From positions 54,624-74,623 of the forward strand of contig JBBIQV010000011.1 in the NCBI GenBank assembly GCA_037442105.1: a stretch of 20,000 nt of DNA, written 5' to 3'. Shown here one piece after another: positions 2,282 to 20,000 of this stretch (its first letter is position 1; each line of letters begins with the position of its first letter). The position numbers and the translations under genes were made by a program. A model generated the notes under the pieces. It was not told the DNA's origin, made no database searches, and worked only from the letters and a program-made list of their open reading frames with translations. This DNA is from Nitrospiraceae bacterium (GTDB lineage: Bacteria; Nitrospirota; Nitrospiria; Nitrospirales; Nitrospiraceae).

Positions 2282-2356
2282 CCAGTGATGAGCGACGAGT
2301 GACGAGTGACAGAGTTGTCCGCCACCCCATGCTCGTCGTCCATCACCCATCACCGG
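2282..2356. repeat. Heptamer-tandem inverted repeat element (GAYGRGY type)
   Basis: Left arm ccagt-gatgagc-gacgagt-gacgagt. Right arm gctcgtc-gtccatc-acccatc-accgg is its imperfect reverse complement. Confidence 0.8.
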
Positions 2357-2366
2357 GAGTTGATGC

Positions 2367-2699
2367 ATGGAGACCTATTACCATCCCAAAGATTTGGACA
2401 AGTTCGGCGACATGGGCAAGGGCAACAAGGAGTTGTGGGAGAAGTTTATGAGCTATTACAGCGCCGTCTTTGCGGAAGGGACGCTGAGCGAACGTGAGAA
2501 AGCTCTCATCGCGCTCGGCGTGGCTCACGCAGTTCAGTGTCCCTACTGCATCGATGCCTACACGCAGGCCTGCTTAGAGAAAGGCTCGAACGTGGAAGAG
2601 ATGACCGAGGCTATCCACGTGGCCTGCGCAATCCGCGGAGGCGCCTCACTGGTCCACGGTGTACAGATGCGGAACATTGTGGAGAAACTTTCCATGTAG
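2367..2699 (+). CDS. AhpD/carboxymuconolactone decarboxylase family protein with CxxC (arsenosugar-associated peroxidase-like subfamily, TIGR04169-like)
   Basis: LSEREKALIALGVAHAVQCPYCIDAY CMD/AhpD motif. The N-terminal YYxPxDLxKFG and C-terminal AIRGGASLVHGVQM are typical of this subfamily. GGGAG SD. Confidence 0.85.
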   Translation: METYYHPKDLDKFGDMGKGNKELWEKFMSYYSAVFAEGTLSEREKALIALGVAHAVQCPYCIDAYTQACLEKGSNVEEMTEAIHVACAIRGGASLVHGVQMRNIVEKLSM

Positions 2700-2707
2700 C
2701 TTCTCCA

Positions 2708-2790
2708 CAGGCTATAGGTCCGAAGATCTCTCTTGCCTCTTTCCAGACAAGCTTCCAGTCTATCGTCCATAGCCTATTGCCGATTGCCTG
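2708..2790. repeat. Heptamer-tandem inverted repeat element (GCCYMTY type) between convergent genes
   Basis: Short left arm caggctatagg. Right arm gtctatc-gtccata-gcctatt-gccgatt-gcctg. Confidence 0.7.
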
Positions 2791-2794
2791 CGCG

Positions 2795-3805
2795 CTACGC
2801 GCGCAAGTACCCATTCTCGCGAAACCACGCCAGTGCGTCCGAGAGCGCGGTTTCCACCGGACGACGCGGATAGTCCAGCTCCCGTATCCCTTTGGAGCAA
2901 TCGTAGTGCTGCATGTGCCGGAGCACCTCCATGAAAAAGCCGGGGATGGGAGCGGGCTTGCGTAATACGGTTCGGAACACCCAGTCGCCGAATTTCGATC
3001 CGAGTCGAGCTACTTCGAAGGGCGCGGGGAAAAGCGGTGGCCGGACGCCGGCCACGCTGGCGATGAGTTGGTTCAGGGCTTTCTGTGTCGTGTTCCAATT
3101 GCCCAAAATGTAGCGCTCGCCCACGCGTCCTCGTTCCGCCGCGCGAATCATGCCCTCCGCCACATCCCGCACGTCGATCACGTTCACCGGCCCATCGACA
3201 TAGGCCGGCATCTGCCGCTTGGCGATCATCAGGATCTGCGTCCCGCTGGTCGGCCGACTATCGTAAGGGCCGTAGAATGCCGTGGGATTGACCACGATGG
3301 CCGGCACACCCCGGCGCGCCGCGTCCAGCACCTCGCGCTCCATCGCGATCTTCGACATGAGGTACGGATTCTCCGTATAGGTCGTAGTGAATGGGCAGTT
3401 TTCGTCGGCGAGTCGGCCCCTCCGAGGAGGAAACCCGATCGTCGTGAGCGTGCTGGTGAAGACCATTCGCTCGACCGAGGCACGAGCGACGGCCTGCAGC
3501 AAGTTGTCTGTTTCGGCCAGCGCCTGCTTGGTAGCGACCTCAACGGGAATCGTATAGGGCGGGTAGTAGCTCGCACACTGGTACACAGCGCGGACTCCCT
3601 CGCATGCACGGATGAGGGAGTCGGCATCGTTCAAGTCACCGTCGACGCGCTCAATGTCCAACCCTTTCAGAGAGAGATGGCGACGGGCCTGCGCGCTGGA
3701 CTGAACCGTGTGAAACAACACGCGCACGTGCTCCCCTCTGTCCAGCAGCGCGCGGACGAGGTTCGCGCCGAGGTGTCCGGTCCCGCCGAGTACCAGAACT
3801 TTCAT
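2795..3805 (-). CDS. NAD-dependent epimerase/dehydratase (extended SDR; HpnA/dihydroflavonol reductase-like)
   Basis: Rossmann motif VLGGTGHLG, catalytic YLMSK (YxxxK), and motifs VNPTAFYGPYD, VDVRDVA-like IDVRDVA and GERYILG. Confidence 0.9.
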   Translation of the reverse strand: MKVLVLGGTGHLGANLVRALLDRGEHVRVLFHTVQSSAQARRHLSLKGLDIERVDGDLNDADSLIRACEGVRAVYQCASYYPPYTIPVEVATKQALAETDNLLQAVARASVERMVFTSTLTTIGFPPRRGRLADENCPFTTTYTENPYLMSKIAMEREVLDAARRGVPAIVVNPTAFYGPYDSRPTSGTQILMIAKRQMPAYVDGPVNVIDVRDVAEGMIRAAERGRVGERYILGNWNTTQKALNQLIASVAGVRPPLFPAPFEVARLGSKFGDWVFRTVLRKPAPIPGFFMEVLRHMQHYDCSKGIRELDYPRRPVETALSDALAWFRENGYLRA

Positions 3806-3869
3806 GTTGGTCTCTCCCGAGCGAGGAGCAGAGGGAACCGAAAATGCGCGGTTCAGCAGATACGTCGGA

Positions 3870-5732
3870 CTACAGGTACGGATACTCAGGAATCGCCAGA
3901 GTGAAGTACTTCCCTCGCTCTTCGTATAATATGCGCTTTGTGGTCAACTCGGCCAGCGTCGTAGCAAGCCTGTCGTGGGAGAGCATTCCTTGCGCCGGCT
4001 GCGCCATCGCCGCGCTGCGGATCTGCTCAGCCGATTTCGGCGCCTCGTTGCAACACTCAATGACGAAGGATGCCGGCCAGTCGAATCGTTCCCGCGTCGG
4101 GGCGCCGGGGTTCCGCCCATCGTACACCGTGACATAGGTCATCGCTTTCGAGTAATAGAGGAAGGGTTTGTCGGCCGAAGCATGCCGGCGCCGCCATTCG
4201 CATACCAGATCGACCAACTCCTGATAGACGCGGGGATCGACTTTCCAGTCGTCCATCTCGTACTCGAAATCGTAGGCGATCTTCATCAAATCCACCTGCC
4301 TCGCATCATACACATATTCGTACGCCGCCCCCGGTCCCGTAATTCTGATTCCATACTCCTGCGGCCGTCTGAAGTAAGGACTGAATCGCTCCAGCCAGAA
4401 CTTGCCGGCCCCTTCCGGCGGCTGGAGATGGAACAACGAGGGTAGGAGCGCGAGCTGCCGGCGATAGTCCTCATTGGTCTCGCCTGGGAACCCGAGCAGG
4501 ATGTTCCATGAAACGCCGATGCGATAGTAGTAACTCCACTTCAAACATTGGATGTTCTGCAACGGGCTGACTCCCTTGTCCATCGCATGGAGCTGCGCGT
4601 GACTCAGGCTTTCCAGTCCCGGCTGCATGCACTTCACACCACCGGCCGCCAGCGTGCGAATCTGCTCCTTGTGCAGGTTGCTCTTGGTCTCGATGAAGAC
4701 GTCGAGATCGCAGTGGTCGGCGGCGAACTTACCGAAGAGGTGCTCGATGTACTTCATGTCGATAATGTTATCCACCAGCCGGAAGCGCGCCGTGTCGTAC
4801 CGGCTCGACAGATAGGCCATCTCCCGCGCCACCTGCTCGGAGGACTTCGCACGAAATTTCATGCTCTGCGCATTCAAGCCGCAAAACGTGCAATGGTGCT
4901 TCTCACCCCACCAACAACCGCGCGAGCCTTCGTAGAGCAGGATGCGGTTTAATCCATGAGCCGCATCTGTGCCCAGTTCGGCGAGCAGATGATAGTAGTC
5001 ATCATAGTCCGGCGGACCGGTCCGGGCAAAATCGGAAAACAACGCCGTATTGGGTTCATAGCCGATGCGGCCGCCTTTTCGAAAGATCACCCCCTTGGGA
5101 TAGCCGTCTTGCTTGCCTGCGAGCACGTGCTCGACCAGAGCGGGGAAGACCTCCTCGCCCTCACCGACTACCACATAGTCGATCCAGGGAAACGCCCGGA
5201 AGTACTCCCATCCCATCTCGCCGTCGTAGTTCGCGCCGCCGAAGACGACCTTCACGTCCGGATAAAGATCCTTGATCAATTTGGCCATCGTGAGACTGGC
5301 CACATTCTGATCGAACGTCGAGGTGAACCCGACGATCTTGTACCGCTCCCAATCCATTGCTGTCAGCGCCCAGGTGAGGAATTGCGGGGCAAGGCGACCG
5401 GCCAGGTCTTCAAAATGCGACACGGGGCGCCCGCTCTCCTCAGCCAGTTGCTCGAACACCGGCTTGAAGACGCGCGGATATTCGCCCCGCTTCGGGTTGT
5501 CGCGAAACAGCAGATACGAAAAGAGCCATTCGCCGAACAGCGCCCGCTTCTCGCAAATCAGCTCATACAGCGGCACGCCGATCTTGTAGGCGAACCGCAC
5601 GTTGAGGTGGTGGCAATCGACCGCTATGCCTCGAGACTTCAGGAGGGCGGAAAGCGTCCCCAATTGAATGGACGGGTACTTCGAAAAGCTGAACGGCATA
5701 TTGACGAGCGCCACCTGGGCCTTCTCGCTCAT
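3870..5732 (-). CDS. B12-binding radical SAM C-methyltransferase, 'RiPP maturation radical SAM protein 1' (TIGR03975-like)
   Basis: N-terminal LVNMPF..PSIQLGTL, cobalamin-domain VGFTSTFDQ and FGGAN..GEGE, Cx7Cx2C cluster motif SRGCWWGEKHHCTFCGLN, QPGLESLS, and WNILLGFPGE. Confidence 0.88.
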   Translation of the reverse strand: MSEKAQVALVNMPFSFSKYPSIQLGTLSALLKSRGIAVDCHHLNVRFAYKIGVPLYELICEKRALFGEWLFSYLLFRDNPKRGEYPRVFKPVFEQLAEESGRPVSHFEDLAGRLAPQFLTWALTAMDWERYKIVGFTSTFDQNVASLTMAKLIKDLYPDVKVVFGGANYDGEMGWEYFRAFPWIDYVVVGEGEEVFPALVEHVLAGKQDGYPKGVIFRKGGRIGYEPNTALFSDFARTGPPDYDDYYHLLAELGTDAAHGLNRILLYEGSRGCWWGEKHHCTFCGLNAQSMKFRAKSSEQVAREMAYLSSRYDTARFRLVDNIIDMKYIEHLFGKFAADHCDLDVFIETKSNLHKEQIRTLAAGGVKCMQPGLESLSHAQLHAMDKGVSPLQNIQCLKWSYYYRIGVSWNILLGFPGETNEDYRRQLALLPSLFHLQPPEGAGKFWLERFSPYFRRPQEYGIRITGPGAAYEYVYDARQVDLMKIAYDFEYEMDDWKVDPRVYQELVDLVCEWRRRHASADKPFLYYSKAMTYVTVYDGRNPGAPTRERFDWPASFVIECCNEAPKSAEQIRSAAMAQPAQGMLSHDRLATTLAELTTKRILYEERGKYFTLAIPEYPYL

Positions 5733-5774
5733 CTGCTGCCTCGTGGGTTCATAGAAAAGCGTTCTGACCGACGG

Positions 5775-6125
5775 CTAGCCGGCGGCGGCCCTGAACGGTT
5801 CGAATTCCCGATCGGCCTTGGCGGCCAGATAGAAGTCGCTTTCTGTCAGACCGTTGATCTTATGGGTCCAGATTTCGACCTTGCATTTGCCCCAGGCCAG
5901 ATAGAGGTCCGGATGGTGGCCTTCGGCCTCAGCAATCGCGCCGACCTTGTTCACATACGCGAGAGCCTGGGCAAAGTTTTTAAACGTATAGAGTCGCTCC
6001 AGATGCCCGGCTCCATTCAAGAACCAACCGTGACCAAGTTCTTGCAATAAGCCCTGCGCCCGTTCTGCAGGAAGAGGTGGGACTCCTCCGCGACAGGGAA
6101 TACATTTGTTATCGGCGAGACTCAT
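5775..6125 (-). CDS. phhB: Pterin-4-alpha-carbinolamine dehydratase
   Basis: N-terminal CIPCRGG, catalytic AEAEGHHPD, and WTHKINGLTESDFYLAAK. AAGGAG SD. Confidence 0.92.
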   Translation of the reverse strand: MSLADNKCIPCRGGVPPLPAERAQGLLQELGHGWFLNGAGHLERLYTFKNFAQALAYVNKVGAIAEAEGHHPDLYLAWGKCKVEIWTHKINGLTESDFYLAAKADREFEPFRAAAG

Positions 6126-6157
6126 CGTTCTTCTCCTTCATATCATGACCGACAAAT

Positions 6158-6186
6158 ATTCTAAGGGGCGATGCGCGGAGAAACAA
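6158..6186 (-). promoter_or_regulatory. Putative sigma70 promoter for the pterin dehydratase-radical SAM-SDR operon
   Basis: Minus strand TTGTTT-N17-TAGAAT. Confidence 0.55.
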
Positions 6187-6203
6187 GGCAAGGGAGGGGG
6201 CGA

Positions 6204-7202
6204 CTATTCGGTTTCGTCCGGGGTTCCACCGGTTTTCGCCAAGTCGTCCATTTTGATCTTGTCGGGGTTGAACTTGGCCGCTGCTGCCGCCATCCGGTCG
6301 AGGGCCTCGTCGAAGGAAAGGGGCGGTGCATCTTTGGGCCGAAAGCGAATGGGATTCACGCGCGCCACGACAAAAGCCTTGAGGTACGGACTCGTCAACC
6401 CCCTGACCTTCAACGCCTCCACTTGCTTGACGATCTCGTCATCGAGCGTCAGGACGGTTCGTGCCCGCGCGTGCCGCACTTCGATCGCCGAGCGCAGCGG
6501 CTTCTTCAAAAACTCGTCCACCCGTTTTAGTACCGGATGATAGGCGCCCCCGCTGAACCGAGGGCGTTCCTCATAGCAGAGGCCGAGCGTAATGAACGCC
6601 GGTTCTTCGAACTCCAGGGCATAGGTCTCCTCGGTCACCTCATCGAGACGGGTCAGTTCTTTGTACATGCGGATGACTTCCAGCGCCTTCTCCCTGAGGT
6701 TGTGCGCTTTCTCGGTATTCAGCGCGAGAATTTGATAGGCTGCCGCCGCTTCCGGCACCACGATCGCCACGATGCTCTTGGCCCCCAGCATCCGCATCGC
6801 CGACAATCGGTGATGCCCGTTCGGCGTCCAGTACTTCGCGGCATGATCTACCTTCGGCATATGCACGGCAATGACCGGATCAAGGAAGCGGCCGATCTTC
6901 CCGATCACAGCTTCCAACTTACGGACGTGGGTCTCGGAGAGATTCCGCTGATAGGGCGTGGGCTCCACCAATTCGATCGGCAAGGCAGCCATCACCAGCC
7001 AACGTCCACCGTAGGGCTCGCGATAGACCGCAAGCACTTTGCCGCCATCCTGATCGATCGCCCGATGCAGTTCGGCGACGTCAGCCGGGGGCGCGGCAGC
7101 TTGCAACTCCGTCGCGGCGAGGCCGACCGCGGCGCCGGCCGGTTTCCGCCGACGCCGGACACTTCCGGACGCTCTCGGCTCTTTGAGTTTCTTCCCGGCC
7201 AT
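6204..7202 (-). CDS. ParB/Srx N-terminal domain protein
   Basis: PTPYQR (ParB box I-like), FLDPVIAV, TPNGHHRLSAM (box II-like) and ALNTEKAHNLREKA. No adjacent parA. Confidence 0.8.
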   Translation of the reverse strand: MAGKKLKEPRASGSVRRRRKPAGAAVGLAATELQAAAPPADVAELHRAIDQDGGKVLAVYREPYGGRWLVMAALPIELVEPTPYQRNLSETHVRKLEAVIGKIGRFLDPVIAVHMPKVDHAAKYWTPNGHHRLSAMRMLGAKSIVAIVVPEAAAAYQILALNTEKAHNLREKALEVIRMYKELTRLDEVTEETYALEFEEPAFITLGLCYEERPRFSGGAYHPVLKRVDEFLKKPLRSAIEVRHARARTVLTLDDEIVKQVEALKVRGLTSPYLKAFVVARVNPIRFRPKDAPPLSFDEALDRMAAAAAKFNPDKIKMDDLAKTGGTPDETE

Positions 7203-7276
7203 CGTTCAATATGGTAGGGAAGTGGAGGGATAAAAGAAAGCCCCTGATCCAGCATGCGCACAAGGAGGATTCCGCG

Positions 7277-7939
7277 ATGCTTCGCATCGGTCACCGTGGC
7301 GCCGCCGGTCATGCGCCGGAGAATACACTGGCCTCCGTCGAGCAGGCAATTTCCCTCGGAGTGGACCTCGTCGAAGTAGACCTTCGGAGCACTCGTGACG
7401 GGCACCTGGTCATCATCCACGATGAGCGCGTCGACCGGACCACCAATGGCAGGGGAGTTGTCGCCGAGATGGCATTGGCCAAACTCCAGCAACTCGACGC
7501 AGGCAATGGCCAACACATTCCCACGCTCGTGGAATTACTTGACGCCACCCGCGGCCGCGTCGGCCTGCTGCTGGAGATCAAGGCGGCCGGCGTCGCCGAG
7601 AACGTGCAAGCCATGCTCCACAGCGCGGAATTTCCCGGCCCGGTCATCATCGCTTCATTCCTCGCCGAGGAGCTGCTCTCGATCCGGAACTCGGACCCTT
7701 CGGTCTCTACACTGGTTCTGTTCGATAAGTACGCGAGGGATCCGCTCTCCCAAGCAGTCATGGCCAAGGCTTCGCACATAGGAGTTCCTTTCACGAGGGT
7801 GACGCAAGCACTGGTCCAAGCTTCCCGCCGGGCCGGACTGCGCGTGTTCGTCTACACCGTCAATGATCCTCGCGATATTCAGAAGATGCGCGCGCTCGAT
7901 GTCGACGGCATCATCTCCGACTTTCCTGACCGCTTGTAA
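7277..7939 (+). CDS. Glycerophosphodiester phosphodiesterase (cytoplasmic UgpQ/GlpQ-like)
   Basis: IGHRGAAGHAPENT, EVDLRSTRDGHLVIIHD, LEIK, YTVND and DGIISDFPD. AAGGAGG SD before ATG 7277. Confidence 0.93.
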   Translation: MLRIGHRGAAGHAPENTLASVEQAISLGVDLVEVDLRSTRDGHLVIIHDERVDRTTNGRGVVAEMALAKLQQLDAGNGQHIPTLVELLDATRGRVGLLLEIKAAGVAENVQAMLHSAEFPGPVIIASFLAEELLSIRNSDPSVSTLVLFDKYARDPLSQAVMAKASHIGVPFTRVTQALVQASRRAGLRVFVYTVNDPRDIQKMRALDVDGIISDFPDRL

Positions 7940-8019
7940 TTTGAACCCGGATTATTTATGACGGCTCGTCGTTCCCCTTTGCTTCAGCCACACTTCCTGG
8001 TGCTTAACCGGGAGGCCTC

Positions 8020-9354: not shown

Positions 9355-9359
9355 GTCAG

Positions 9360-9852
9360 TGCCCCCACGTGGCCGTCTGCGCGGACAAGCATACATCCCA
9401 CCAGTCGCCGGCCGAGCCGACGGTGGCCGAACAGTCGGCAGGCCGGACACCCCAGAGTCAGTTTGGGCAGGCTGGGGGTAGAGCTGATCCAGGCCCACTC
9501 GCCGCAGGCCAAGAGCCGAGTCGAACGGCTCTTTCACACCTTTCAGGATCGGCTGATTAAGGAGCTACGCTGGTGGGGATTGCGACCTTCAAGGCGGCAA
9601 ATTGGGTTCTGGATGGCTCTCTGCCGCGCGACAACCGGCGCTGTGCGGTGCCACCGGCCCAGGCCGCCTATCCGCCTCGGTCGAGGCCGGGCGGGCCGGG
9701 AGCTGGACCGCATCCTGTGCTTCAAGACAACAGGGGCCTTTCGCTGCGACTCGAAGGTCGCGACCTCCCCGCGCCTAGTCAAGCCGATGGGGGATCATCC
9801 GTGGCGCCAGCGGGTTTACCATAAAACCGGACATTTCTAAATTGGGTTGACA
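9360..9852 (+). mobile_element. Degenerate IS remnant (ISNCY-type DDE transposase 3' part plus right terminal repeat)
   Basis: Transposase segments in three frames: ADKHTSHQSPAEPTVAEQ..PQSQFG / GVELIQAHSPQAKSRVERLFHTFQDRLIKELR / GIATFKAAN..LPRDNRRCAVPPAQ / RELDRILCFKT..DHPWR. Ends in GGACATTTCTAAATTGGGTTGACA, an IS-end-like sequence (5'-TGTCAA on the minus strand). Confidence 0.8.
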
Positions 9853-9868
9853 AGGATCAAACAGAGCC

Positions 9869-9897
9869 TTGTGGAACGATATGGCCTGTGTTAAACT
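9869..9897 (+). promoter_or_regulatory. Putative sigma70 promoter for rpsU
   Basis: TTGTGG-N17-TAAACT with an extended -10 TG. Confidence 0.5.
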
Positions 9898-10251: not shown

Positions 10252-10911
10252 ATGCGCGACAGGGATATCCACGCCGCTATCCGTGTTCTGAAACGGGAGG
10301 TGCAGCAGTGGCAGGAACCTGCCGTCGGCCTCGTGGCGAAAGAATCGGGGGGCGATCCATTTCGGATTCTCATCTCCTGTCTCTTGAGCCTGCGCACCAA
10401 AGATCAAACCACTGATGAAGCCAGCCGACGCCTCTTTGCGCTGGCAACCGATCCGGCCTCCATGCTCAAGATTCCTGTTCGGCAAATCGAACGGGCGATC
10501 TATCCCGTCGGCTTCTACCGCACTAAGGCGGTGCGGATTCATGAGATTTGTCGCCGGCTATTGGAGGAGTACGGTGGGCGCGTGCCGCATTTGATCGAGG
10601 ACCTGCTCGCCTTGCCTGGGGTCGGGCGGAAGACGGCTAATCTTGTCGTGACAGTGGGCTACCAGAAGCCCGGCATCTGCGTGGACATTCACGTCCACCG
10701 CATCAGCAACCGCTGGGGATACGTCAAGACGAAGACGCCGGAGGAAACCGAGCAAGCCCTGCGCAGCAAACTGCCCACCCGATATTGGATCACCTATAAC
10801 GACCTGCTGGTGCCGTTCGGGCAACACCTCTGCCGACCGGTGTCCCCCTTCTGCAGCCGGTGCAACCTTGCCAAGTACTGCGATCGGGTGGGCGTGACGA
10901 GATCAAGGTAG
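10252..10911 (+). CDS. nth: Endonuclease III (HhH-GPD, [4Fe-4S])
   Basis: LISCLLSLRTKD, HhH LPGVGRKTANLV, VDIHVHRI and C-terminal CRPVSPFCSRCNLAKYC. Confidence 0.93.
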   Translation: MRDRDIHAAIRVLKREVQQWQEPAVGLVAKESGGDPFRILISCLLSLRTKDQTTDEASRRLFALATDPASMLKIPVRQIERAIYPVGFYRTKAVRIHEICRRLLEEYGGRVPHLIEDLLALPGVGRKTANLVVTVGYQKPGICVDIHVHRISNRWGYVKTKTPEETEQALRSKLPTRYWITYNDLLVPFGQHLCRPVSPFCSRCNLAKYCDRVGVTRSR

Positions 10912-10985
10912 GCTATAGGCAAGAACAAGAAAAGGAGGAAGGAGCCGGTTCCGCCCCGTAGCCCTTCGCCCATTGCCCCCCGCCT
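10905..10985. repeat. Heptamer-tandem inverted repeat element between convergent nth and DsrE-like genes
   Basis: Left arm aaggtag-gctatag-gcaagaa. Right arm ccccgta-gcccttc-gcccatt-gcccccc-gcctg. Confidence 0.75.
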
Positions 10986-12388: not shown

Positions 12389-12390
12389 TA

Positions 12391-12428
12391 TTACCTTTAC
12401 CTTTCGCCTTCTGACTCTTTTGACCTGC
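12391..12428. repeat. Single-arm pyrimidine-rich degenerate 6-8 bp tandem repeat upstream of polA
   Basis: ttaccttt-acctttc-gccttct-gactcttt-tgacctg. Confidence 0.45.
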
Positions 12429-12430
12429 TG

Positions 12431-15073
12431 ATGCCCACTCTCTATCTCATCGACGGCAGCGCCTACATTTATCGGGCCTTCTTCGCCCTGCCACCGCTCT
12501 CCAACTCGAAGGGCCTGCCGACCAACGCGGTCTATGGGTTCACCACGATGCTCATGAAGATCCTGCGCGAGCATCGTCCCGGTTGCCTGGCCGTGGCGTT
12601 CGATGAAAAGGGTCCCACTCAGCGCCACGAAGAGTACAAAGCCTACAAGGCGCAGCGCCCCCCGATGCCGGAGGGGATGAGCGGACAGATTCCCTACATC
12701 CATCGAGTGGTCGAAGCCTTCGGCATCCCCGCCGTCCGGCAATTCGGCTATGAAGCCGACGATCTGATCGGCACATTAGCGCGCCAAGCCGAACAGGCCG
12801 GCTACGAAGTGGTCATTGTGACCGGCGACAAGGACATGTTTCAGCTCCTTACGCCGATGGTCCGCATTTACGATCCGGTCAAGGACAAGTGGTTCGGTGA
12901 GGCCGAGTGCCGCGAACGGTTCGGGGTGGAACCGGCGCGTGTCGTCGAGGTGATGGGCTTGATGGGGGATGCCACCGATAACATCCCCGGCGTGAAAGGG
13001 ATCGGAGAGAAAACCGCTATCAAGCTGATCAGCCAGTTCGTCACGATCGATGAGCTCCTGCGGCGAGTAGAAGAAGTCACGCCGGCCAAAATCAAGACCA
13101 TGCTGATGGAGCAGGCGGAGAACGCGCGTCTCAGCCGGCGGCTCGCAACGATTCAGGTGGACTGTCCGGTTGAGTTTCATCCCGAACAATACCAGGTCAA
13201 GCAACCGCACATCGACAGCCTGGTGGCGCTGCTGCGCGAGCTGGAATTCACCTCGCTGGTGAAACAGTTTCAATCGGCGTCGCCAGCCCAGTCCGCGGAG
13301 ACGGAGGTGGCGACCATCCAGGATGCAACGGCGGCCAAGCACTTCGTGCAGGAGTTGCCGGAGACCGGAGCCGTCGGCCTATATGCCGTGCTGGCCGGCG
13401 ATGTCAGCGTGCGCACCGAGGCGCAGGGGCTGGCCATTGGGACTCCGAGCGGACGAACCGTCTTCGTCCAGGGCGATGGCCCAACCTGGCCGCAGCCGAT
13501 CAAGGATCTGCTCGGTGATGCCGGGAAAAGGAAGGCGGTCCATGATCTGAAACCGGTCCTCCTGGCCTTGGCTCGTCATGACATCCAATTGCGCGGTCCC
13601 TGCTTCGATACGATGATTGCCGACTACCTGCTGAATCCTAATCGCCGTGCCCACACGCTCGAAGCCGTGGCGCTGGAAGTGTTAGGGGCTCAGCTTGGGG
13701 CGGCGAAGCCGAGTACCATGACGAAGGTTGCGGCCACGCTGTTCGATGTGGATGAGAGTATCGTTCAGCATGCCGGAGAAGCGGCGGCGACGACGGCTAA
13801 ACTGGTTCCTGTGCTGGAAGAGCGGCTCACCGAGCAAGGCAGTCTTCGCCTCTTCAAGGACGTGGAGATGCCGCTCGTGCCGGTGCTGGCGGAGATCGAA
13901 CGGAACGGATTTCTCCTCGACGTGGAGGCGCTCCGGTCGCTCAGCAAGGAGCTGGAGCGCGAATTAGACCGGATGATGGAGACCATCGCCGGGCTGGCGG
14001 GCGGCGAGTTCAACATCAACTCGCCCAAACAACTGGCCACCGTCTTGTTCGACAAACTGGGGTTGAAACCGATCCGAAAAACCAAGACGGGTTACTCCAC
14101 CGACGAAGAAACGCTCACGCAGTTGGCCGCGCAGCACGATCTACCGGCCCAGATTCTGAACTACCGAAGCCTCAGCAAGCTCAAGTCGACGTATGTGGAT
14201 GCGCTGCCCGAACTCGTCAATCCGGATACGGGCCGGCTGCACACGTCACTGAATCAGACGGTCGCTGCGACAGGCCGGCTTTCCTCCACTGAGCCCAATC
14301 TGCAGAACATCCCGGTGAAAGGCGAGTACGGGTTGCGGATCAGGGAAGCCTTCATCGCCCCCAAAGGCCACACGTTGCTCTGCGCGGACTACAGCCAGAT
14401 CGAGCCGCGCATTCTGGCGCATCTCTCACAAGATGAGAAGCTGCTCAAGGTGTTTGAACGGGGAGAGGACATCCACACGGCCACGGCGGTAGAGATTTTC
14501 AAGCTTCTACCGGAACAGATCACCAAAGAGATGCGGCGCGCGGCGAAGACGGTGGTGTTCGGGATTGTCTACGGGATCAGCCCGTTCGGACTCTCGCAGA
14601 ACATCGGCGTGTCGCAGGCAGAAGCGAAGAAGTACATTGATACCTTCTTTGAACGATTTGCGGCGGTGCGGGCGCTCATGGACCGGAACATCGCCGAGGG
14701 GAAACAGAAGGGCTATACCACCACCATTCTGGGACGCCGACGTCCCATCCCTGAACTACAGAGTTCCGATCCGACCCAGCGCGGCTTCGGTGAGCGGATG
14801 GCGGTGAACAGCCCGATTCAAGGCTCGGCGGCCGATGTCATCAAAGTCGCGATGATCGCCGTGAACAAGCGATTGCAGGAGGAAATACCGAGTACGAAGA
14901 TGATTCTCCAAGTGCACGATGAGTTGATCTTCGAGGTACCCGACAAGGATTTGGAGAAAGCAAAGCAGCTCGTGAAGTCCGAGATGGAGGCAACGGGGAC
15001 GAAACTCGGACTATCGGTGCCGCTGAAGGTTGATCTCGGCGTCGGCCACAACTGGCGATCGGCGCATCCGTAA
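12431..15073 (+). CDS. polA: DNA polymerase I
   Basis: 5'-3' exonuclease LIDGSAYIYRAFFA, EADD and DNIPGVKGIGEKTA. Polymerase motifs ATGRLSS, ADYSQIE, RRAAKTVVFGIVYG and LQVHDEL. Confidence 0.98.
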   Translation: MPTLYLIDGSAYIYRAFFALPPLSNSKGLPTNAVYGFTTMLMKILREHRPGCLAVAFDEKGPTQRHEEYKAYKAQRPPMPEGMSGQIPYIHRVVEAFGIPAVRQFGYEADDLIGTLARQAEQAGYEVVIVTGDKDMFQLLTPMVRIYDPVKDKWFGEAECRERFGVEPARVVEVMGLMGDATDNIPGVKGIGEKTAIKLISQFVTIDELLRRVEEVTPAKIKTMLMEQAENARLSRRLATIQVDCPVEFHPEQYQVKQPHIDSLVALLRELEFTSLVKQFQSASPAQSAETEVATIQDATAAKHFVQELPETGAVGLYAVLAGDVSVRTEAQGLAIGTPSGRTVFVQGDGPTWPQPIKDLLGDAGKRKAVHDLKPVLLALARHDIQLRGPCFDTMIADYLLNPNRRAHTLEAVALEVLGAQLGAAKPSTMTKVAATLFDVDESIVQHAGEAAATTAKLVPVLEERLTEQGSLRLFKDVEMPLVPVLAEIERNGFLLDVEALRSLSKELERELDRMMETIAGLAGGEFNINSPKQLATVLFDKLGLKPIRKTKTGYSTDEETLTQLAAQHDLPAQILNYRSLSKLKSTYVDALPELVNPDTGRLHTSLNQTVAATGRLSSTEPNLQNIPVKGEYGLRIREAFIAPKGHTLLCADYSQIEPRILAHLSQDEKLLKVFERGEDIHTATAVEIFKLLPEQITKEMRRAAKTVVFGIVYGISPFGLSQNIGVSQAEAKKYIDTFFERFAAVRALMDRNIAEGKQKGYTTTILGRRRPIPELQSSDPTQRGFGERMAVNSPIQGSAADVIKVAMIAVNKRLQEEIPSTKMILQVHDELIFEVPDKDLEKAKQLVKSEMEATGTKLGLSVPLKVDLGVGHNWRSAHP

Positions 15074-15196
15074 TTTGAACCTCTCACGGTTTCTTGTTTT
15101 TCTTATCCGCCGGCCCCTCCGCAAAGAGCAGCCACGCGAGAACCACAAAACCCACCGCCACCGCCGCGATCGCAAGCCAGGTTCCCAGTTTCTCCA

Positions 15197-15598
15197 TCAG
15201 GATGCTCTCGGTGACGGGCCCTGAAGTGCCTTGAGAAGACGGGACTCCAAGCGTTTGACCTTCCCGTCAAGATTGACTGTCACCAGCTTCGCCGAGCCTT
15301 CCACGACGATCCGCCCGCTCGTGCGTTCACGGATAACATGAGCGAAGGTGAACGACGTGCGCCCGATCTCAGCGAGCCTCGTTTCAATCGCGAGGACCTC
15401 ACCATAGCGGGCGGGGGAGCGATAGTCCGCCTCGGCATGCACGACCAGAAATTGTGTGCCTTCCTCGATGAGTCCGGCCACTGAGACCCCACGTTGTTCC
15501 AAATACTCCGTCCGGGCGCGCTCGAAGTACTTCAGGTAGTTCGCATAATACACCACGCCGCCACAGTCGGTATCTTCGTAATAAATGCGGATGTCCAT
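15197..15598 (-). CDS. YbgC/FadM-family acyl-CoA thioesterase (hotdog fold)
   Basis: IRIYYEDTDCGGVVYYANYLKYFERARTE signature. Confidence 0.9.
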   Translation of the reverse strand: MDIRIYYEDTDCGGVVYYANYLKYFERARTEYLEQRGVSVAGLIEEGTQFLVVHAEADYRSPARYGEVLAIETRLAEIGRTSFTFAHVIRERTSGRIVVEGSAKLVTVNLDGKVKRLESRLLKALQGPSPRAS

Positions 15599-15603
15599 GA
15601 ATG

Positions 15604-15757
15604 CAGCTGATGGCTAACAGCCGGCAGCACATAGCGAACAGCTACCGGCCTTGAGCCCTTCAACGGTCAACTGAACACCGACCAGATGATCGTATTCTCC
15701 ACCCCCGTCCGTCATGCTTTTATTTGGCTGCTCTCCGCCAGCTATTCGCTATTAGCT
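15604..15757. repeat. Heptamer-tandem inverted repeat element (GCNRAYA type) with an approximately 75-nt spacer
   Basis: Left arm gctgatg-gctaaca-gccggca-gcacata-gcgaaca-gcta. Right arm ends ccgccag-ctattcg-ctattag-ct. Confidence 0.75.
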
Positions 15758-15759
15758 CG

Positions 15760-17022
15760 TTAAAGATTCAGCGTCGGAAACTTCGGCAGCGAGGTCTCGT
15801 TGACGCCTGTCAACTTCACGACGACCTCACACAGTTGCTGTACCCGCTCGGTTTTGACCGGCTCGAAGCCGTGGCCCAGCACCCCATGACTGGCGGCATC
15901 GAGCAACGGCTTCATCTTCGGCCATTGGGCAAGAAATCCCTGCCCCATCTGATCGCCGAGACCGGCCAACGCGCGGAACTGACTCGGCAGCGGCAGCTTG
16001 AACTTCCCGTCCACATCGTCGAGGTAGCAAGTCCGGCATGTCTCGCGCAACGCCTGCGGCAACTGCTCCGGCTGCACGTCCCACGTCTTGATCTTGTACT
16101 GCTTGAAGAGCTGCTGCTGCGCAAAGGCTTCGAGGGCCCGCACCAGCGCCTGCATCGCGGCTTCGGGATCATGGTCCACGCTCGCGCGGCGTTCGGCATG
16201 GGCAAGGAGGTCCAATGCAACCGCCTCCTTCACTTCAGCAGGATCGAGCACGATCTTCTCCAGGAAAGCCGCGTTCGCCCTGATCAGAGGAACCAGCGCC
16301 TTCAAACCCGGCGGCCCGCCCCAGAGCGACGCCATCTCCAGCGCCTTGAGCGAAGTCTTCAGTTTGTCCCACGCCGGCCGGTACTGGAAGCGCTCCCACA
16401 ACCGATACCCCTCTGCCAGGTCGGCGACCGCGCGATAGAGCGGTTTCTGTCCTCCGCTCACGCGCGCTTCGAGATCGCGAAAGGCCGACGCGGCGGCGCT
16501 GAAGCTCCCTTGGTTGAATAACTCGCACGCTTCGTGGCGCGCCACGGTCGCAGCTTCATCCCACGGATTGCCCTGAAGCCAGACACACTCCCGTCCATCG
16601 ATCACCACCGTCTCGCCGCTCGTCGCCGTCGTGTTGCTCGCCCCGACAATGGCGAGGATCCGCGATGTCCACGGCAGGCTGGCCGCCGCCAGCGCGGCCG
16701 CCATCGCCGGTGTCGCCCCTGTGAGATCGACGACCAGCTCGCCGGCTTGCACCTCCCAGGTCTTCAACAAATCGCGGAGCGTGCGGGAAAGGGCTTGATG
16801 GCAGGCGACGATGCTCGCGGCATCGGGCGTGACCACCCAATCCCAGCGCCGGGGCATCCGGTGGATCTGAGGCTGGACCGCGCTTTCCACCAGCACCTTC
16901 CCGCTCTCCGGGACGAAAAAGCACAGGAGATCGGGCGTAAGGCGATTGACCACATAGACCGCCGCCGGTGCATCGTCCGTCAACGCTACCAACAGAGCTT
17001 TCACTGGGCGGTCTTGCGGCAT
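15760..17022 (-). CDS. TIGR02710-family (Csm6/Csx1-related) CARF-HEPN-like protein with degenerate motifs
   Basis: CARF-like N-terminus (L.PDLLCFFV.ESGK and VVDLTGATPAM, cf. DxTGGTKxM), NPWD linker, helical middle (LAEGYRLWERF, DLLAHAERRA, RALEAFAQ) and C-terminal ASHGVLGHGF (cf. RNxSILAHG). Confidence 0.75.
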   Translation of the reverse strand: MPQDRPVKALLVALTDDAPAAVYVVNRLTPDLLCFFVPESGKVLVESAVQPQIHRMPRRWDWVVTPDAASIVACHQALSRTLRDLLKTWEVQAGELVVDLTGATPAMAAALAAASLPWTSRILAIVGASNTTATSGETVVIDGRECVWLQGNPWDEAATVARHEACELFNQGSFSAAASAFRDLEARVSGGQKPLYRAVADLAEGYRLWERFQYRPAWDKLKTSLKALEMASLWGGPPGLKALVPLIRANAAFLEKIVLDPAEVKEAVALDLLAHAERRASVDHDPEAAMQALVRALEAFAQQQLFKQYKIKTWDVQPEQLPQALRETCRTCYLDDVDGKFKLPLPSQFRALAGLGDQMGQGFLAQWPKMKPLLDAASHGVLGHGFEPVKTERVQQLCEVVVKLTGVNETSLPKFPTLNL

Positions 17023-17030
17023 GGGCGCGG

Positions 17031-17059
17031 ACTATAACATCCCCCTTGGACCCGATCAA
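17031..17059 (-). promoter_or_regulatory. Sigma70 promoter of the CARF-like gene (near-leaderless)
   Basis: Minus strand TTGATC-N17-TATAGT with an extended TG. ATG lies 8 nt downstream with no SD. Confidence 0.7.
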
Positions 17060-17067
17060 CGGAGGAT

Positions 17068-17160
17068 GAATCGTTCGTCATTCGTGAGGAGGGGAAAGGC
17101 GCGGCGACGAGAGCCGACGGTCTCCGTTCCGGACAAACGACGGTCGACGATTGACGCGTT
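17068..17160. repeat. Heptamer-tandem inverted repeat element (TCGT/ACGA type) between divergent promoters
   Basis: Left arm gaatcgt-tcgtcat-tcgtgag. Right arm acaaacg-acggtcg-acgattg-acgcgtt. Confidence 0.6.
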
Positions 17161-17167
17161 TCGGCGT

Positions 17168-17196
17168 TTGACAGAACCCTGAGGCTCTCCTACAAT
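17168..17196 (+). promoter_or_regulatory. Near-consensus sigma70 promoter of gmhA (near-leaderless)
   Basis: TTGACA-N17-TACAAT. The GTG start lies 8 nt downstream with no SD. Confidence 0.8.
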
Positions 17197-17204
17197 CGCC
17201 GCTC

Positions 17205-17783
17205 GTGAAAGACCGAGCTACCAAAGCGTTCGAGGACAGTGCCGACGTACAGCGCCGGTTCGCGCAATCGCACGCCGACAAGATCGTGGGCATGGCGCAG
17301 ATGATCGAGCGAGCCTTTCGCGAGGGGCACAAAGTGTTGCTGTTCGGCAACGGCGGTAGTGCCACCGACGCGTCCCACATCGCAGCGGAATTCGTCGGGC
17401 GGTATCAGCGCAATCGCGCACCGCTGCCCGCTCTCGCGCTGGGCACCGACATGGCGGCCGTCACCTGCATCGCAAACGACTACGCATATGATGAGGTTTT
17501 CGCCCGCCAAATCCGTGCGCACGGCCAAAAAGGCGACATCGCCGTCGCCATCAGCACGAGCGGCAACTCCCCGAACGTGCTGAAGGCCGTGCAGGCCGCG
17601 CGCGAGGCCGGGCTCACCACGATTGCCTGGACCGGCGGCACCGGCGGCAAACTCGCCGGCCTGGTGGACCATGCGTTCATCGTGCCTTCGACAGTGACGG
17701 CCCGCATCCAGGAAAGCCACATCACCCTCGGTCACGTGTTGTGCGAACTCATCGATGAGCAGCTCTTTGCGCAAACGACTTGA
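17205..17783 (+). CDS. gmhA: D-sedoheptulose-7-phosphate isomerase
   Basis: FGNGGSATDASHIAAE, IANDY, ISTSGNSPNV and TARIQESHI. Confidence 0.95.
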   Translation: MKDRATKAFEDSADVQRRFAQSHADKIVGMAQMIERAFREGHKVLLFGNGGSATDASHIAAEFVGRYQRNRAPLPALALGTDMAAVTCIANDYAYDEVFARQIRAHGQKGDIAVAISTSGNSPNVLKAVQAAREAGLTTIAWTGGTGGKLAGLVDHAFIVPSTVTARIQESHITLGHVLCELIDEQLFAQTT

Positions 17784-18762
17784 CCAGGCGCGCGCGCCCG
17801 TCCATCCCCGTTCTCCGACTCCTCCGATCGACGTGTCGGAGCTCAAAACCTATCCGCTCAAGAAACGCCATAGCAAGGTCCGCCTCACGAACTTCGCGCA
17901 GACCTGGAAGTCCGGCGGCAGCTTGAAGCAATTCCTTCGCTCGCTCCCCGACATTCTCGCCGTGAAGACCTTGCGCGAAGTGGCGCATGCCATTGCGCAG
18001 GCGCACCGGCGCGGCCGGCCGGTCATCGTCGGCATGGGGGCGCACGTCGTCAAGGTCGGCCTGAATCCGATCATCGTGGATCTGATGGAACGCGGCGTCA
18101 TCACCGCTGTCGCCATGAACGGCGCGGTGATCATCCACGACTTCGAGCTTGCGTTGATGGGGCACACGTCGGAAGAAGTGGACGCCGAAATCGACTCCGG
18201 CCGGTTCGGGATGGCGGAAGAAACCGGGCGCATGCTGAACGACGCGATCATCCGAGGGTGGAAAGACGGGCAAGGAGCCGGCGAAGCGATCGGGCACTAC
18301 ATTAATCGCTACCAAGGCCAGTTTCGTTACCGCGACACAAGCATCCTCGCCACCGGGGCCCGCCTCGGTATCCCGGTGACGGTCCATGTCGCGATCGGAA
18401 CCGACATCATCCATATGCACCCCTCTGCCGACGGAGCGGCGATCGGCGCCGGCTCCATGCTCGATTTCCGCCGGCTCGCCGCGGTCGTGGCAAATATGGA
18501 TGGGGGTGTCTATCTCAACCTTGGCTCAGCGGTGATCCTGCCCGAGGTGTTCCTGAAAACCGTCTCACTCGGCCGGAACCTCGGTCATGACCTCACGAAC
18601 ATCACGACCGTGAATATGGACTTCCTCTCCCACTACCGTCCGTTAACGAATGTGGTGCGACGCCCGACGCAAAAAGGCGGCAAAGGTTACTCCCTTACCG
18701 GCCACCACGAGATCATGGTGCCGCTGCTAGCCGCGGCAGTGCTTGAAGAGTTGGACCGGTAG
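17755..18762 (+). CDS. Conserved protein with deoxyhypusine-synthase-like fold (GSU2086-like family)
   Basis: GMGAHVVKVGL, AMNGA..IHDFE, G.FGMAEETG, TVHVAIGTDIIHMH, GSAVILPEVFLK and GHHEIMVPLL. Start uncertain; it overlaps the gmhA end by 29 nt. Confidence 0.75.
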   Translation: MSSSLRKRLDQARAPVHPRSPTPPIDVSELKTYPLKKRHSKVRLTNFAQTWKSGGSLKQFLRSLPDILAVKTLREVAHAIAQAHRRGRPVIVGMGAHVVKVGLNPIIVDLMERGVITAVAMNGAVIIHDFELALMGHTSEEVDAEIDSGRFGMAEETGRMLNDAIIRGWKDGQGAGEAIGHYINRYQGQFRYRDTSILATGARLGIPVTVHVAIGTDIIHMHPSADGAAIGAGSMLDFRRLAAVVANMDGGVYLNLGSAVILPEVFLKTVSLGRNLGHDLTNITTVNMDFLSHYRPLTNVVRRPTQKGGKGYSLTGHHEIMVPLLAAAVLEELDR

Positions 18763-18771
18763 CCGAGGCTC

Positions 18772-19341
18772 ATGCCGCACCGAGATTCGCCGCCGCTCTC
18801 CACCGACCGGCTCCAGTCGATCTGGCTCGATCTCAACGCCCGTTTCTTCGACGGCAGGCTCCCGCCCATTCAAATCGTCTGGAGCCGGCGGCTGACGGCC
18901 TCGTCCGGGATGTTCGTGAGTCGCGTCGGGCCCCGTGCCAGGACCGAGCATGGGACAGATGCGCGATCGGAGCGACGAGCAATCCGGCTCTCGCTGCCTC
19001 TGTTGCAATCGCTCTCAGTTCGAACCTCATATGCCGAGCAGGAGGTCGTGAGCACCATCGCGCACGAGATGATTCACCAGTGGCAGTTCGACCTGCTGAA
19101 GCGACGCCCGGATCACGGGTTGGACTTCTTGCGCAAGATGACCGAGATGAACCGATCGGGTTTGGTCGGAGTGACGATCTATCACTCGCTGAGGAAAGAA
19201 GTGCAAGCCCTCTCGCGATACGCATGGCGGTGCCGACAATGTGGCCGCATCTACCAGCGACACCGGCGATCGATCCAGCCACAGCGCCACCGGTGCGGGC
19301 AATGTCGGGGACCGCTGCAGGAGTTGGCTTACGTCCAATAA
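18772..19341 (+). CDS. SprT-like zinc metalloprotease with C-terminal zinc ribbon
   Basis: LNARFFDGRLP, HEMIH (HExxH), DHG..F and CRQC..CGQC. Confidence 0.88.
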   Translation: MPHRDSPPLSTDRLQSIWLDLNARFFDGRLPPIQIVWSRRLTASSGMFVSRVGPRARTEHGTDARSERRAIRLSLPLLQSLSVRTSYAEQEVVSTIAHEMIHQWQFDLLKRRPDHGLDFLRKMTEMNRSGLVGVTIYHSLRKEVQALSRYAWRCRQCGRIYQRHRRSIQPQRHRCGQCRGPLQELAYVQ

Positions 19342-19347
19342 GGCAGG

Positions 19348-20000
19348 TTACGCACGGTCGGCGGCTGGAGGGGTCGCCGCCGGGTTGGTACTGGCTCCCT
19401 CGCCTTTCCGAAGCCAACGCGCCAGCACAGCGGCCAGGTCCTGCGACTTGACCGGCTTCGAGATGTATTCGTCCATCCCGGCTTCCAAACACCGTTCGCG
19501 ATCCCCCTTCATCGCGTTGGCGGTCATGGCGATAATCGGAATATGGCGATGGGCGATGGGCAAGGGGCTATGGGTGGGAGAAGACAACTCCGGCCTATCG
19601 CCTCTTGCCCCTTGCCTCTTGCCTGCGGCGGACTCGCGTTCGCGAATCCGTCGCGTGGCGGCAAATCCGTCCATCTCCGGCATCTGGCAGTCCATCAACA
19701 CCGCCGCATACGCCACCCGAGCGGTGGCTTCGACCGCCTCCACGCCGTTGGCGACCACATCGACGCGATACCCCAGCTTCTCCAGCATGCGGACCGCCAC
19801 CTTCTGGTTGATGACGTTGTCCTCGGCCAGCAGCAACCGGACGCCGGTCTTCAACTTCGCCTCAGCCAGCGTATGCCGTGTCACCAGGGCGGCCGACGCC
19901 CGAGGCACGGGGCGAGAGGCCGGCAGGAGCGCATCCTCGCCGGTGCGCTTCTCGCGTCGCGCCTCGGCCCGTTCGCCCATCACCGCGACCAGACAGTCAT
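19348..20000 (-). CDS. C-terminal receiver domain of a hybrid sensor histidine kinase/response regulator (partial)
   Basis: LLAEDNVINQKVA, VLMDCQMPEMDG and IPIIAMTANAMKGDRERCLEAGMDEYISKP. The frame stays open to the window edge. Confidence 0.92.
   Translation of the reverse strand, partial: DCLVAVMGERAEARREKRTGEDALLPASRPVPRASAALVTRHTLAEAKLKTGVRLLLAEDNVINQKVAVRMLEKLGYRVDVVANGVEAVEATARVAYAAVLMDCQMPEMDGFAATRRIRERESAAGKRQGARGDRPELSSPTHSPLPIAHRHIPIIAMTANAMKGDRERCLEAGMDEYISKPVKSQDLAAVLARWLRKGEGASTNPAATPPAADRA
19543..19625. repeat. Heptamer-tandem inverted repeat element located in frame within the receiver domain
   Basis: Left arm gcgatgg-gcgatgg-gcaaggg-gctatgg. Right arm gcctatc-gcctctt-gcccctt-gcctctt-gcctg. 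Confidence 0.85.
19898..19978. repeat. Heptamer-tandem inverted repeat element located in frame in the interdomain linker
   Basis: Left arm gcccgag-gcacggg-gcgagag-gcc. Right arm gcttctc-gcgtcgc-gcctcgg-cccgttc-gcc. Confidence 0.7.

Follow-up and report, generated by a model that had tools for sequence, protein, structure and literature searches.

Repeat elements of the window

The stretch of DNA analysed here (the window, 20,000 nucleotides of a Nitrospiraceae genome) holds eight elements made of 7-nt repeats, seven of them with two arms (Table 1). All eight had been recognised in a preliminary description, were recovered at their positions, and are also present in a conspecific strain. Compared with themselves, the arms are 0.40-0.80 identical at lag 7; for lags 6 and 8 most values lie at 0.04-0.35 and reach 0.46 in class-E arms that are rich in purines.

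Table 1. Position, class and context of the repeat elements in the window. Fold z is the z-score of folding against 100 dinucleotide shuffles, with the better strand taken.
Position	Element	Strand	Context	Fold z
2282..2356	Class A (GTGAYGR), two-armed	.	Co-directional junction	-5.3
2708..2790	Class E (GGC core)	.	Convergent junction	-2.7
10905..10985	Class E, decayed	.	Overlaps nth stop codon, convergent nth/DsrE junction	-0.3
12389..12428	TACCTTT class, lone 3' arm	.	Between stop of PGPGW gene and ATG of polA	
15599..15760 (arms 15604-15757)	Class C (AGC core)	-	Whole junction, from stop of TIGR02710 CARF gene to ATG of YbgC-like thioesterase gene	-3.3
17066..17160	Class F (CGTCA core), decayed	.	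Divergent spacer	-1.4
19543..19626	Class E, intact	-	In frame, loop of receiver domain	-7.6
19896..19980	Class E, decayed	-	In frame, linker ahead of receiver domain	-2.5

An 89-aa gene ends (TGA) 4 nt before the class-A element, which directly precedes the GGGAG and ATG of a CMD-family gene. The left arm of the class-E element at 2708 is cut down to two units, and the conspecific strain carries one extra whole unit (+7) inserted after position 2713. The class-C element has a spacer of ca. 80 nt, and no ribosome-binding site is visible in it. The class-F element ends just upstream of a promoter-like site (TTGACA...TACAAT) of gmhA. The two last elements (19543 and 19898) both lie in frame within a response-regulator gene; the receiver-domain loop that contains the former is 24 residues longer than that of the syntenic homologue in genome G001, and the same loop carries class-E inserts in two paralogues of this genome.

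The orthologous sites in related genomes are variously empty, occupied by another class or occupied by a cassette bearing a gene, so that the turnover suspected earlier is observed, including turnover of class. Out of eight usable sites orthologous to 2282..2356, three carry a two-armed element of another class, one a lone 6-mer arm and four no element, and 10 of the 11 junctions homologous to 10905..10985 carry repeat arms, of class E in none and with period 9 in three; both comparisons were scored by eye, one rearranged row being left out of the former. The junction of the lone arm bears both arms of the TACCTTT class in one genome (G007) and the 5' arm only in another (G010). In 6 of 10 relatives, the junction of the class-C element contains a gene encoding a four-helix-bundle protein, flanked by arms that belong to two other classes, the remaining four relatives having the same class-C element (one), two nested gene-less classes (one) or remnants (two). 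No arms were found in the three short spacers orthologous to 17066..17160 (L037, L039 and L040).

Five two-armed copies fold with z-scores of -2.5 to -7.6, but those at 10905 and 17068 have scores of only -0.3 and -1.4, which indicate that both are decayed. A scan with the arm classes detected both arms at 2282, 15604 and 19543 and one arm at 2708, 10905, 17068 and 19898; it missed 12391, the class of which was absent from the seeds. Three copies do end in GCCTG, as had been noticed; all three are of class E (3 of its 4 copies in the window), of which this sequence is the outer end.

Arm classes and their distribution in the genome

The genome contains about 430 such loci (434 after merging) with 693 strong arms, against a chance expectation of 4. 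This is about one element per 6.5 kb, a lower density than the one per 2.5 kb estimated from the window. The 7-nt autocorrelation and inverted-repeat scan against shuffles that had been proposed as a check gave a clear signal: 506 segments at lag 7 (490 without N runs) compared with 33-60 at lags 5, 8, 10, 11 and 13 and with 21 in a triplet shuffle. Of the 132 array pairs separated by less than 150 nt, 58 match as reverse complements with at most 1 mismatch and 6 are direct, while reverse complementarity at that level is found in 4.9% of random array pairs. The elements have terminal inverted repeats, as MITEs do, although degenerate ones (ca. 67% paired in register), and they are also tandem 7-mers dispersed in intergenic DNA, as heptamer simple-sequence repeats are.

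The arms fall into about nine sequence classes, each of which pairs solely with itself and in a fixed orientation (for instance 53 of 54 and 79 of 87 pairs), classes A, C, E and F having 21-87 paired copies each. Units have fixed and free positions; in class B, five of the seven positions are 95-100% fixed and two are free. The idea that the copies share architecture but not sequence is therefore not sustained, nor is that of a structure-defined element. No covariation between arms was found, and the pairing within an element is no better than that between arms drawn from separate copies of the class; at free positions facing arms in fact match below chance (0.20-0.23 vs 0.28 in class B, 0.39-0.42 vs 0.44-0.45 in class C). 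There was no folding advantage of the sense strand (107 of 208), no strand bias per element and no G-U bias in the stems (454 G-U vs 484 A-C). No excess of flanking direct repeats indicative of target-site duplication was detected at 244 elements, whose ends are approximate and whose old duplications may have decayed. The lack of covariation, of G-U bias and of an excess of target duplications, together with the scarcity of U-tracts, indicates that the arms are sequence-defined, not structure-defined, and that they are not terminators. A role as bidirectional intrinsic terminators, also put forward in the preliminary description, is indeed hardly credible. It would fit the closeness of the hairpins to stop codons, the two window copies at convergent junctions and a frequency of U-tracts about twice the background (18/229 and 21/229 on the two strands vs 3.8%), but on a given strand more than 90% of the elements have no U-tract, there is no preference for convergent junctions (occupied in 14 of 256 cases vs 169 of 1957 for co-directional ones), and copies are found within the rpoB-rpoC operon, ribosomal-protein operons and some reading frames. 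A match to a miRNA in Rfam was below threshold (26.6 bits vs 66) and was taken to be a chance hairpin likeness.

Arm length has its mode at 30-31 nt. Five in-register cores are present in 91 of 174 arms flanking a gene, with a steep drop to 18 at six cores, and in 65 of 138 arms sampled across phyla. The lengths change by whole units, as seen between conspecific strains both at 2713 and in the arms of contig C2 (+14, +7, +14 and about +15). Stops in all three frames occur in 77-92% of classes A, B and F but only in about 30% of classes D and E, so that stops do not explain the period. The whole-unit indels, together with the over-representation of heptamer repeats in bacteria (PMC4692102), could suggest that the elements are simple-sequence repeats generated by local slippage, with the second arm arising by template switching and the gene merely collecting them. 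As the origin of the elements this is largely refuted, and we consider it very improbable: in classes B (0.20 vs 0.28) and D (0.36 vs 0.48) adjacent units resemble each other less than expected by chance, and slightly more in class E, the numbers fall off steeply beyond five cores, the second arm is no copy of the first, orientation is fixed by class, and each protein clade keeps one grammar across phyla (see below).

Most elements lie within operons, shortly after a stop codon: co-directional junctions house 196 of 246 pairs, and about two thirds of the pairs start between -20 and +12 nt from a stop codon. The orthologous junction often has an element too, in most cases one of a different class (14/26 vs 3/43 junctions for G001, 18/25 vs 9/37 for G013). 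These three observations are those expected if the stem had a role for the host at the RNA level, being cut by an RNase III type enzyme or bound, so that operon mRNAs are split or stabilised, for which any class would do. Coxiella's 23S rRNA intervening sequence (IVS), with the same protein family, heptamers and cleavage by RNase III at the first repeat (PMC4990558), provides a precedent. We nevertheless regard such a role as unlikely, given the results on strand, G-U pairs and free positions described above; moreover, many relatives have no element at the same junctions, and tolerant sites or nesting would equally give rise to shared occupancy. No 23S rRNA gene was found assembled in this genome.

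The four-helix-bundle gene between the arms

Each of the five PF05635/TIGR02436 genes of this genome is enclosed by a pair of inverted arms whose class differs from gene to gene (A, B, C, D and G), and all five are co-directional with their neighbours. Genes enclosed by arms of classes E and F were found in relatives and are absent from this genome, which is 87% complete, even though these two classes account for 5 of the 8 window copies. No other genes were found between matched arms. The packaging of the gene by arms recurs in the family: among 118 of its loci, the strongest of about 190 matches, an inverted period-7 test exceeded every shuffle in 87, and 26 of the 118 passed the control in direct orientation as well. 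The best period was 7 in 82 loci, 8 in 11, 9 in 7 and 6 in 5; the result was mixed or a single 10-mer match in 9, and no period was obtained in 4.

At these 118 loci, the protein clades each carry one arm grammar across host genera, with period 7 or, in some clades, 6, 8 or 9. For the nearest relatives of one clade (56-75% identity), inverted periodic arms were present in 71 of the 78 usable loci, and the strict AGCnnTCAGCnnTCAG motif (AGC-NN-TC arms) stood on both sides in 40 of the 78 compared with 0 of 113 loci of other clades, those 40 spanning at least nine named phyla and including an archaeon. At cross-phylum loci the neighbours are co-directional in 37 of 45 cases, vs 24 of 50 in an antisense control, a comparison that carries no information since antisense frames are often open. 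The constancy of the motif within each protein lineage, over many phyla, makes it likely that the protein reads the arms, but any cassette that moves as one piece would show such linkage, which is no proof of recognition. Genomes with the cognate clade are also richer in arms of class B (median 75 vs 8, p 6e-4) and of class F (median 18 vs 2, p 8e-5) and mismatched combinations give p 0.06-0.09, values that treat related genomes as if they were independent, which they are not.

Arms persist without the gene, as indicated by four genomes 99-100% complete that have 80-120 class-B matches and zero match to the clade-B query, and by one genome (G067) with 61 class-F matches and zero match to PF05635. 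None of 54 spacers of at least 30 nt in empty copies resembles the gene, and the polarity of the 3' arm seen in filled copies (26 vs 9 of 46) does not appear in empty class-B copies (8 vs 5 of 54), so that direct descent by deletion of the gene is not established. The spacers are nearly all unique, unlike those of recently copied MITEs.

A structure model of the protein matches the five-chain structure 2GSC with a TM score of 0.95 and Avd, the accessory protein of diversity-generating retroelements, with 0.82-0.83 (4DWL, 0.82; 8UB7). In 13 sequences only four residues are invariant and no recognised catalytic motif was found. The peak of five cores per arm coincides with the number of subunits in the solved pentamer of the PF05635/TIGR02436 family.

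Possible mode of spread and comparison with known systems

The reading that we favour, with a probability of roughly 0.55, is that the hairpins are gene-less members of the gene cassette family and that the predicted pentamer binds its own arms and helps to spread them. The enclosed gene would then supply the trans-acting factor that had been postulated, so that the preliminary interpretation retains this factor and the turnover but loses the structure-defined element and the terminator. A full cassette would consist of two inverted arms, each with about five short cores in a 7-base register, around the PF05635/TIGR02436 gene. The protein would probably bind five cores, those of the class to which it belongs; each subunit could hold about one of them, on single-stranded RNA or DNA as its structural relative Avd does; the chemistry of strand transfer might come from a host or helper enzyme. 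Cassettes and gene-less shells would probably be helped by the protein into transcribed gene junctions, to survive mainly where insertion is tolerated, as in last codons, spacers between a stop and a ribosome-binding site, or protein loops, and they would decay as units, one arm or the gene were lost.

If so, two long-unexplained things would be connected, the over-represented heptamer repeats of bacteria and the function-less 'S23/IVS protein' family, in a way that can be tested: with as many cores per arm as subunits (five) and one grammar per clade, a clean binding matrix of proteins and arm classes is predicted. Elements after the stops of core operons and in protein loops also reshape operon junctions and proteins in relatives of nitrifiers. 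A bolder version, possible but in our opinion doubtful, is that the elements represent a new kind of prokaryotic mobile element that lacks a classical transposase. An Avd-like pentamer would read five tandem cores per end according to a code specific to its clade (period 6-9, with a fixed core and a free linker) and, assisted by a host or helper enzyme, would write cassettes, both full and empty, into transcribed junctions, in many cases in place of an older element. Were it true, it would explain the heptamer excess and the origin of ORF-bearing rRNA IVSs, and would yield a set of protein-repeat pairs orthogonal to one another.

The layout, a gene within inverted repeats and hundreds of empty doublets near stops, with no excess of target duplications, parallels that of REPIN-RAYT systems, in which a gene is likewise associated with inverted repeats and accompanied by many empty extragenic doublets (PMC3116915, PMC3337134, as far as covered). 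Three Y1_Tnp matches are present in this genome, so the doublets could in principle be moved in trans by an HUH (RAYT/Y1) transposase, with the four-helix-bundle gene as mere cargo. This is improbable: none of the three matches is bracketed by arms, arm class tracks the four-helix-bundle clade, and the arms are tandem arrays around a gene with no known catalytic activity, whereas REPs are short palindromes moved by an HUH transposase, with a GTAG- or CGTC-type foot (cf. PMC3733652). Here CGTC is confined to class F, in which it is the repeated core, and no conserved foot was found outside the arms (the top 4-mer in 10 of 488). No transposase with cognate ends, as expected for MITEs, was found. 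No arms were found near Y1 transposase or reverse-transcriptase genes, and a search for GxxExxY/PDDEXK_3 genes returned nothing. Regarding diversity-generating retroelements, the fold is shared with Avd (PMC10053308, in the part covered), but the Avd HMM gives weak matches in 3 of the 5 proteins (24-39 bits vs a cut-off of 80) and no reverse transcriptase stands beside the cassettes, the sole RVT_1 match of the genome lying elsewhere with no arms nearby.

In the literature covered, mostly open-access main texts, the only link of PF05635/TIGR02436 to inverted repeat arms is the Coxiella rRNA IVS. In Coxiella burnetii the S23p protein is encoded inside a stem of terminal inverted repeats, the 5' arm of which has tandem GACAGAT heptamers whose copy number differs between strains (PMC4990558). 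Unlike such ORF-bearing 23S IVSs, the window elements lie at mRNA junctions or in coding frame, not in an rRNA gene, and here hundreds of gene-less copies and many classes co-exist; the covered text of that paper has no description of classes or of copies outside rRNA.

Heptamer repeats of Xanthomonas (GGGAATC) and Nostoc (GGGGAYT) occur in about 185 sets per genome, mostly of four units, of which 70-75 form convergent inverted pairs, between co-directional genes and less than 50 bp from stop or start codons (PMC4692102). They differ in being read as G-quadruplex repeats with one class per genome, and no link to a gene is described in the text covered. The TAACTGA sets of Beggiatoaceae (PMC4679880) are direct repeats, with one inverted case, and no protein is named for them in the text covered; the terms 'four helix', '23S' and 'S23' are absent from the main text. 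They abut start codons, occur in ribosomal-protein operons and provide stops in all three frames, and their author suggested as the possible mobile agent a protein that binds the repeats.

Abundance and composition of the arms

All eight features reported in the window were present, and the heptamer period and inverted layout claimed in the preliminary description hold genome-wide: 7-nt autocorrelation gave 506 segments versus 21 in shuffled sequence and 33-60 at the other lags that are not multiples of three, and 58 of 132 pairs of neighbouring arrays were inverted, versus 4.9% at random. The genome under study (G000; 2.81 Mb in 62 contigs, 58.6% GC, 87% complete) carries 693 strong arms of nine learned sequence classes, with 4 expected; counted otherwise, it has 250 pairs of matching class plus 232 strong arms that lack a partner, or 434 loci. 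Arm order is fixed in each class (A, 23/24; B, 53/54; C, 79/87; D, 15/15; E, 16/18; F, 17/21).

The class-B unit reads GCnnTCA, five of its positions being 95-100% fixed, and of 112 arms in this class 111 are distinct. Adjacent units resemble each other less than expected by chance in classes B and D, and in class E slightly more. A secondary-structure signal had been proposed, and of the window's seven two-armed copies five do fold better than shuffled sequences (the exceptions start at 10905 and 17068). Against such a signal, the two arms of one element match no better than arms of different copies, and at the free positions of classes B and C they match worse; moreover, the better fold lies on the transcribed strand in 107 of 208 elements, and G-U pairs number 454 versus 484 A-C. 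The spaced cores, and no selected duplex, therefore carry the information. Nor are the elements bidirectional terminators, as had also been suggested.

The gene-filled form and its protein

The elements are a real family of the IVS type, and we assign a probability of about 0.9 to their being gene-less members of a four-helix-bundle cassette family. All five PF05635/TIGR02436 genes of G000 lie between inverted arms, of five different classes, and are co-directional with their neighbours. At the window junction that starts at 15604, such a gene is found in six of ten relatives, with two protein lineages and two other arm classes, while the other four comprise one with the same class-C shell (arms without gene), one with a pair of nested shells, and two with remnants. 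Nesting, also between different classes, was observed at this site in relative G001 (locus L036), on contig C2 of G000 and in the L240/L242 region. Some filled cassettes contain a hairpin inside one arm. At two loci (L146 and L148), where the gene has a C-terminal extension, a whole hairpin lies upstream and a 3' arm is missing nearby.

PF05635 is present in 54 of 61 genomes of the family. In a tree of 118 different loci, those with the highest scores among about 190 matches, each starred clade has one arm grammar over several host genera, the deep forks being unresolved because only 106 columns were available. The best period is clade-specific (7 in 82 loci, 8 in 11, 9 in 7 and 6 in 5; nine are mixed or single 10-mer matches and four lack a period). 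Outside the family, we started from the 80 proteins closest to that of class B and removed two with short flanks; inverted periodic arms flank 71 of the remaining 78, and in 40 of the 78, from at least nine named phyla including Bathyarchaeota, both flanks carry the strict class-B pattern with unchanged orientation, versus 0 of 113 loci of other clades. Matching arms are more numerous in genomes with the cognate gene (medians 75 versus 8 and 18 versus 2, kin not being independent), yet in several complete genomes arms are abundant although the query protein finds no match. We consider cognate binding with protein-assisted spread somewhat more probable than not. Five contigs of viral collections (L370-L374) code for proteins close to that of class B (58-60%).

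The protein model (pLDDT 96.5) matches Xcc0516 (2GSC, a five-chain structure) with a TM of 0.95, as well as BT_0352; its match to Avd is more distant (TM 0.82). PMC4990558 calls Xcc0516 a homopentamer, as does the title of a work cited in PMC10053308. Segments are most often 30-31 nt long. Among 174 filled arms, 91 have five in-register cores and only 18 have six, and the peak in empty elements is five in classes C and E and four in A, B and D. The simplest reading of the five cores would be that a ring of five subunits occupies five sites. If units are lost between near-identical neighbours, both the short tail below five cores and the scarcity of identical neighbours would follow.

The individual pieces are already in print. 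As far as the accessible parts of these papers go, heptamers accompany S23p in the Coxiella IVS (PMC4990558), inverted four-unit heptamer pairs lie close to stop codons in Xanthomonas (PMC4692102), and a mobile repeat-binding protein was suggested for the TAACTGA sets of Beggiatoaceae (PMC4679880); the available text of RepRanger has Nitrospira moscoviensis in a table only, heptamers going unmentioned there (PMC12306157). Our literature search rendered no paper connecting the four-helix-bundle gene family with these arms outside rRNA.

Position, turnover and origin of the empty copies

Gene positions were taken from a simple caller of our own, which called 2,530 genes and so locates starts and a few frames only approximately. 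The 246 short pairs fall in 196 co-directional, 15 convergent and 16 divergent junctions, at 7 contig edges, and within called reading frames in 12 cases, these being in frame by construction and a few doubtful. Occupancy per junction (169/1957 co-directional, 14/256 convergent, 12/255 divergent) indicates a modest preference. The preference for gene edges is strong: of the co-directional pairs, 129 start between -20 and +12 nt of the stop and 106 end 4-20 nt ahead of the next start. In 33 long spacers the element lies in the first tenth in 12 and in the last fifth in 8. Class-E inserts are also found in one receiver-domain loop in three paralogues, where, judged by eye, relatives have remnants of class E or other classes. 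These positions and loop inserts would fit broad insertion with survival at tolerant places. At the C25 junction of the table, the cassette of G013 is filled with a gene and belongs to another class.

Turnover was followed in seven regions, mostly picked as element-rich, at junctions with both genes found; there, G001 is occupied at 14 of 26 junctions where G000 has an element versus 3 of 43 elsewhere, and G013 at 18 of 25 versus 9 of 37. The class at shared junctions mostly differs (11 versus 3 the same in G001, 15 versus 3 in G013), classes beyond the nine being undercounted. The same patchwork extends over five relatives in the tuf-rpoB-rpsJ region, and occupancy and class vary likewise at the other window sites. 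Two runs whose contigs are identical, and which may be one data set, represent a conspecific strain that retains every window element, with one extra unit at 2713; on contig C2 four of its arms have gained unit lengths, and one left arm is part of a 141-to-143-nt replacement. No presence/absence difference of a whole element was seen within the species.

Empty spacers are nearly all unique and revealed neither gene remnant nor polarity. Together with the lack of whole-element polymorphism, this suggests that empty copies may have arisen as scars or through recombination among copies instead of by simple deletion. No catalytic partner of the cassettes was found in the genome, and the gene for classes E and F is absent from this 87% complete assembly.

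Other features of the window and genome

Locations of individual features in G000 (window, contigs C#, retrieved loci L#)
Feature	Location	Remarks
TIGR04169 peroxidase-like gene (arsenosugar-associated name)	window 2367-5732	near TIGR03975 RiPP radical-SAM methyltransferase
Degraded remnant reading AHSPQAKSRVERLFHTFQDRL	window 9360-9840	immediately past permease stop
Junction compared in ten relatives	window 15604-15757	
Stand-alone TIGR02710 CARF/Csm6-HEPN-like gene	window 15760-17022	close to gmhA
Nested elements	C2:11840-12460	
Class-A right arm inside apparent prepilin leader peptide	C25:17533 region	L152
CACTTCnGAAAGTG-core repeat	L167:15435-15530	C4, outside window
CACTTCnGAAAGTG-core repeat	L167:18713-18810	C4, outside window

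The window, at C11:54624-74623 of G000, otherwise holds ordinary metabolic genes, nth, polA, the CARF gene, gmhA and a receiver domain. One of its proteins, searched against the Atlas, gave a weak indication of Nitrospirota. The CARF gene is syntenic with a YbgC-like thioesterase gene throughout the family, and the window contains no CRISPR genes. The remnant, which we take to be transposase-like, gave no Pfam match. A second, non-periodic repeat family lies directly behind stop codons, with a conserved core around CACTTCnGAAAGTG in variable flanking stems; it has 11 core matches in G000 and many in the relatives G001 and G004.
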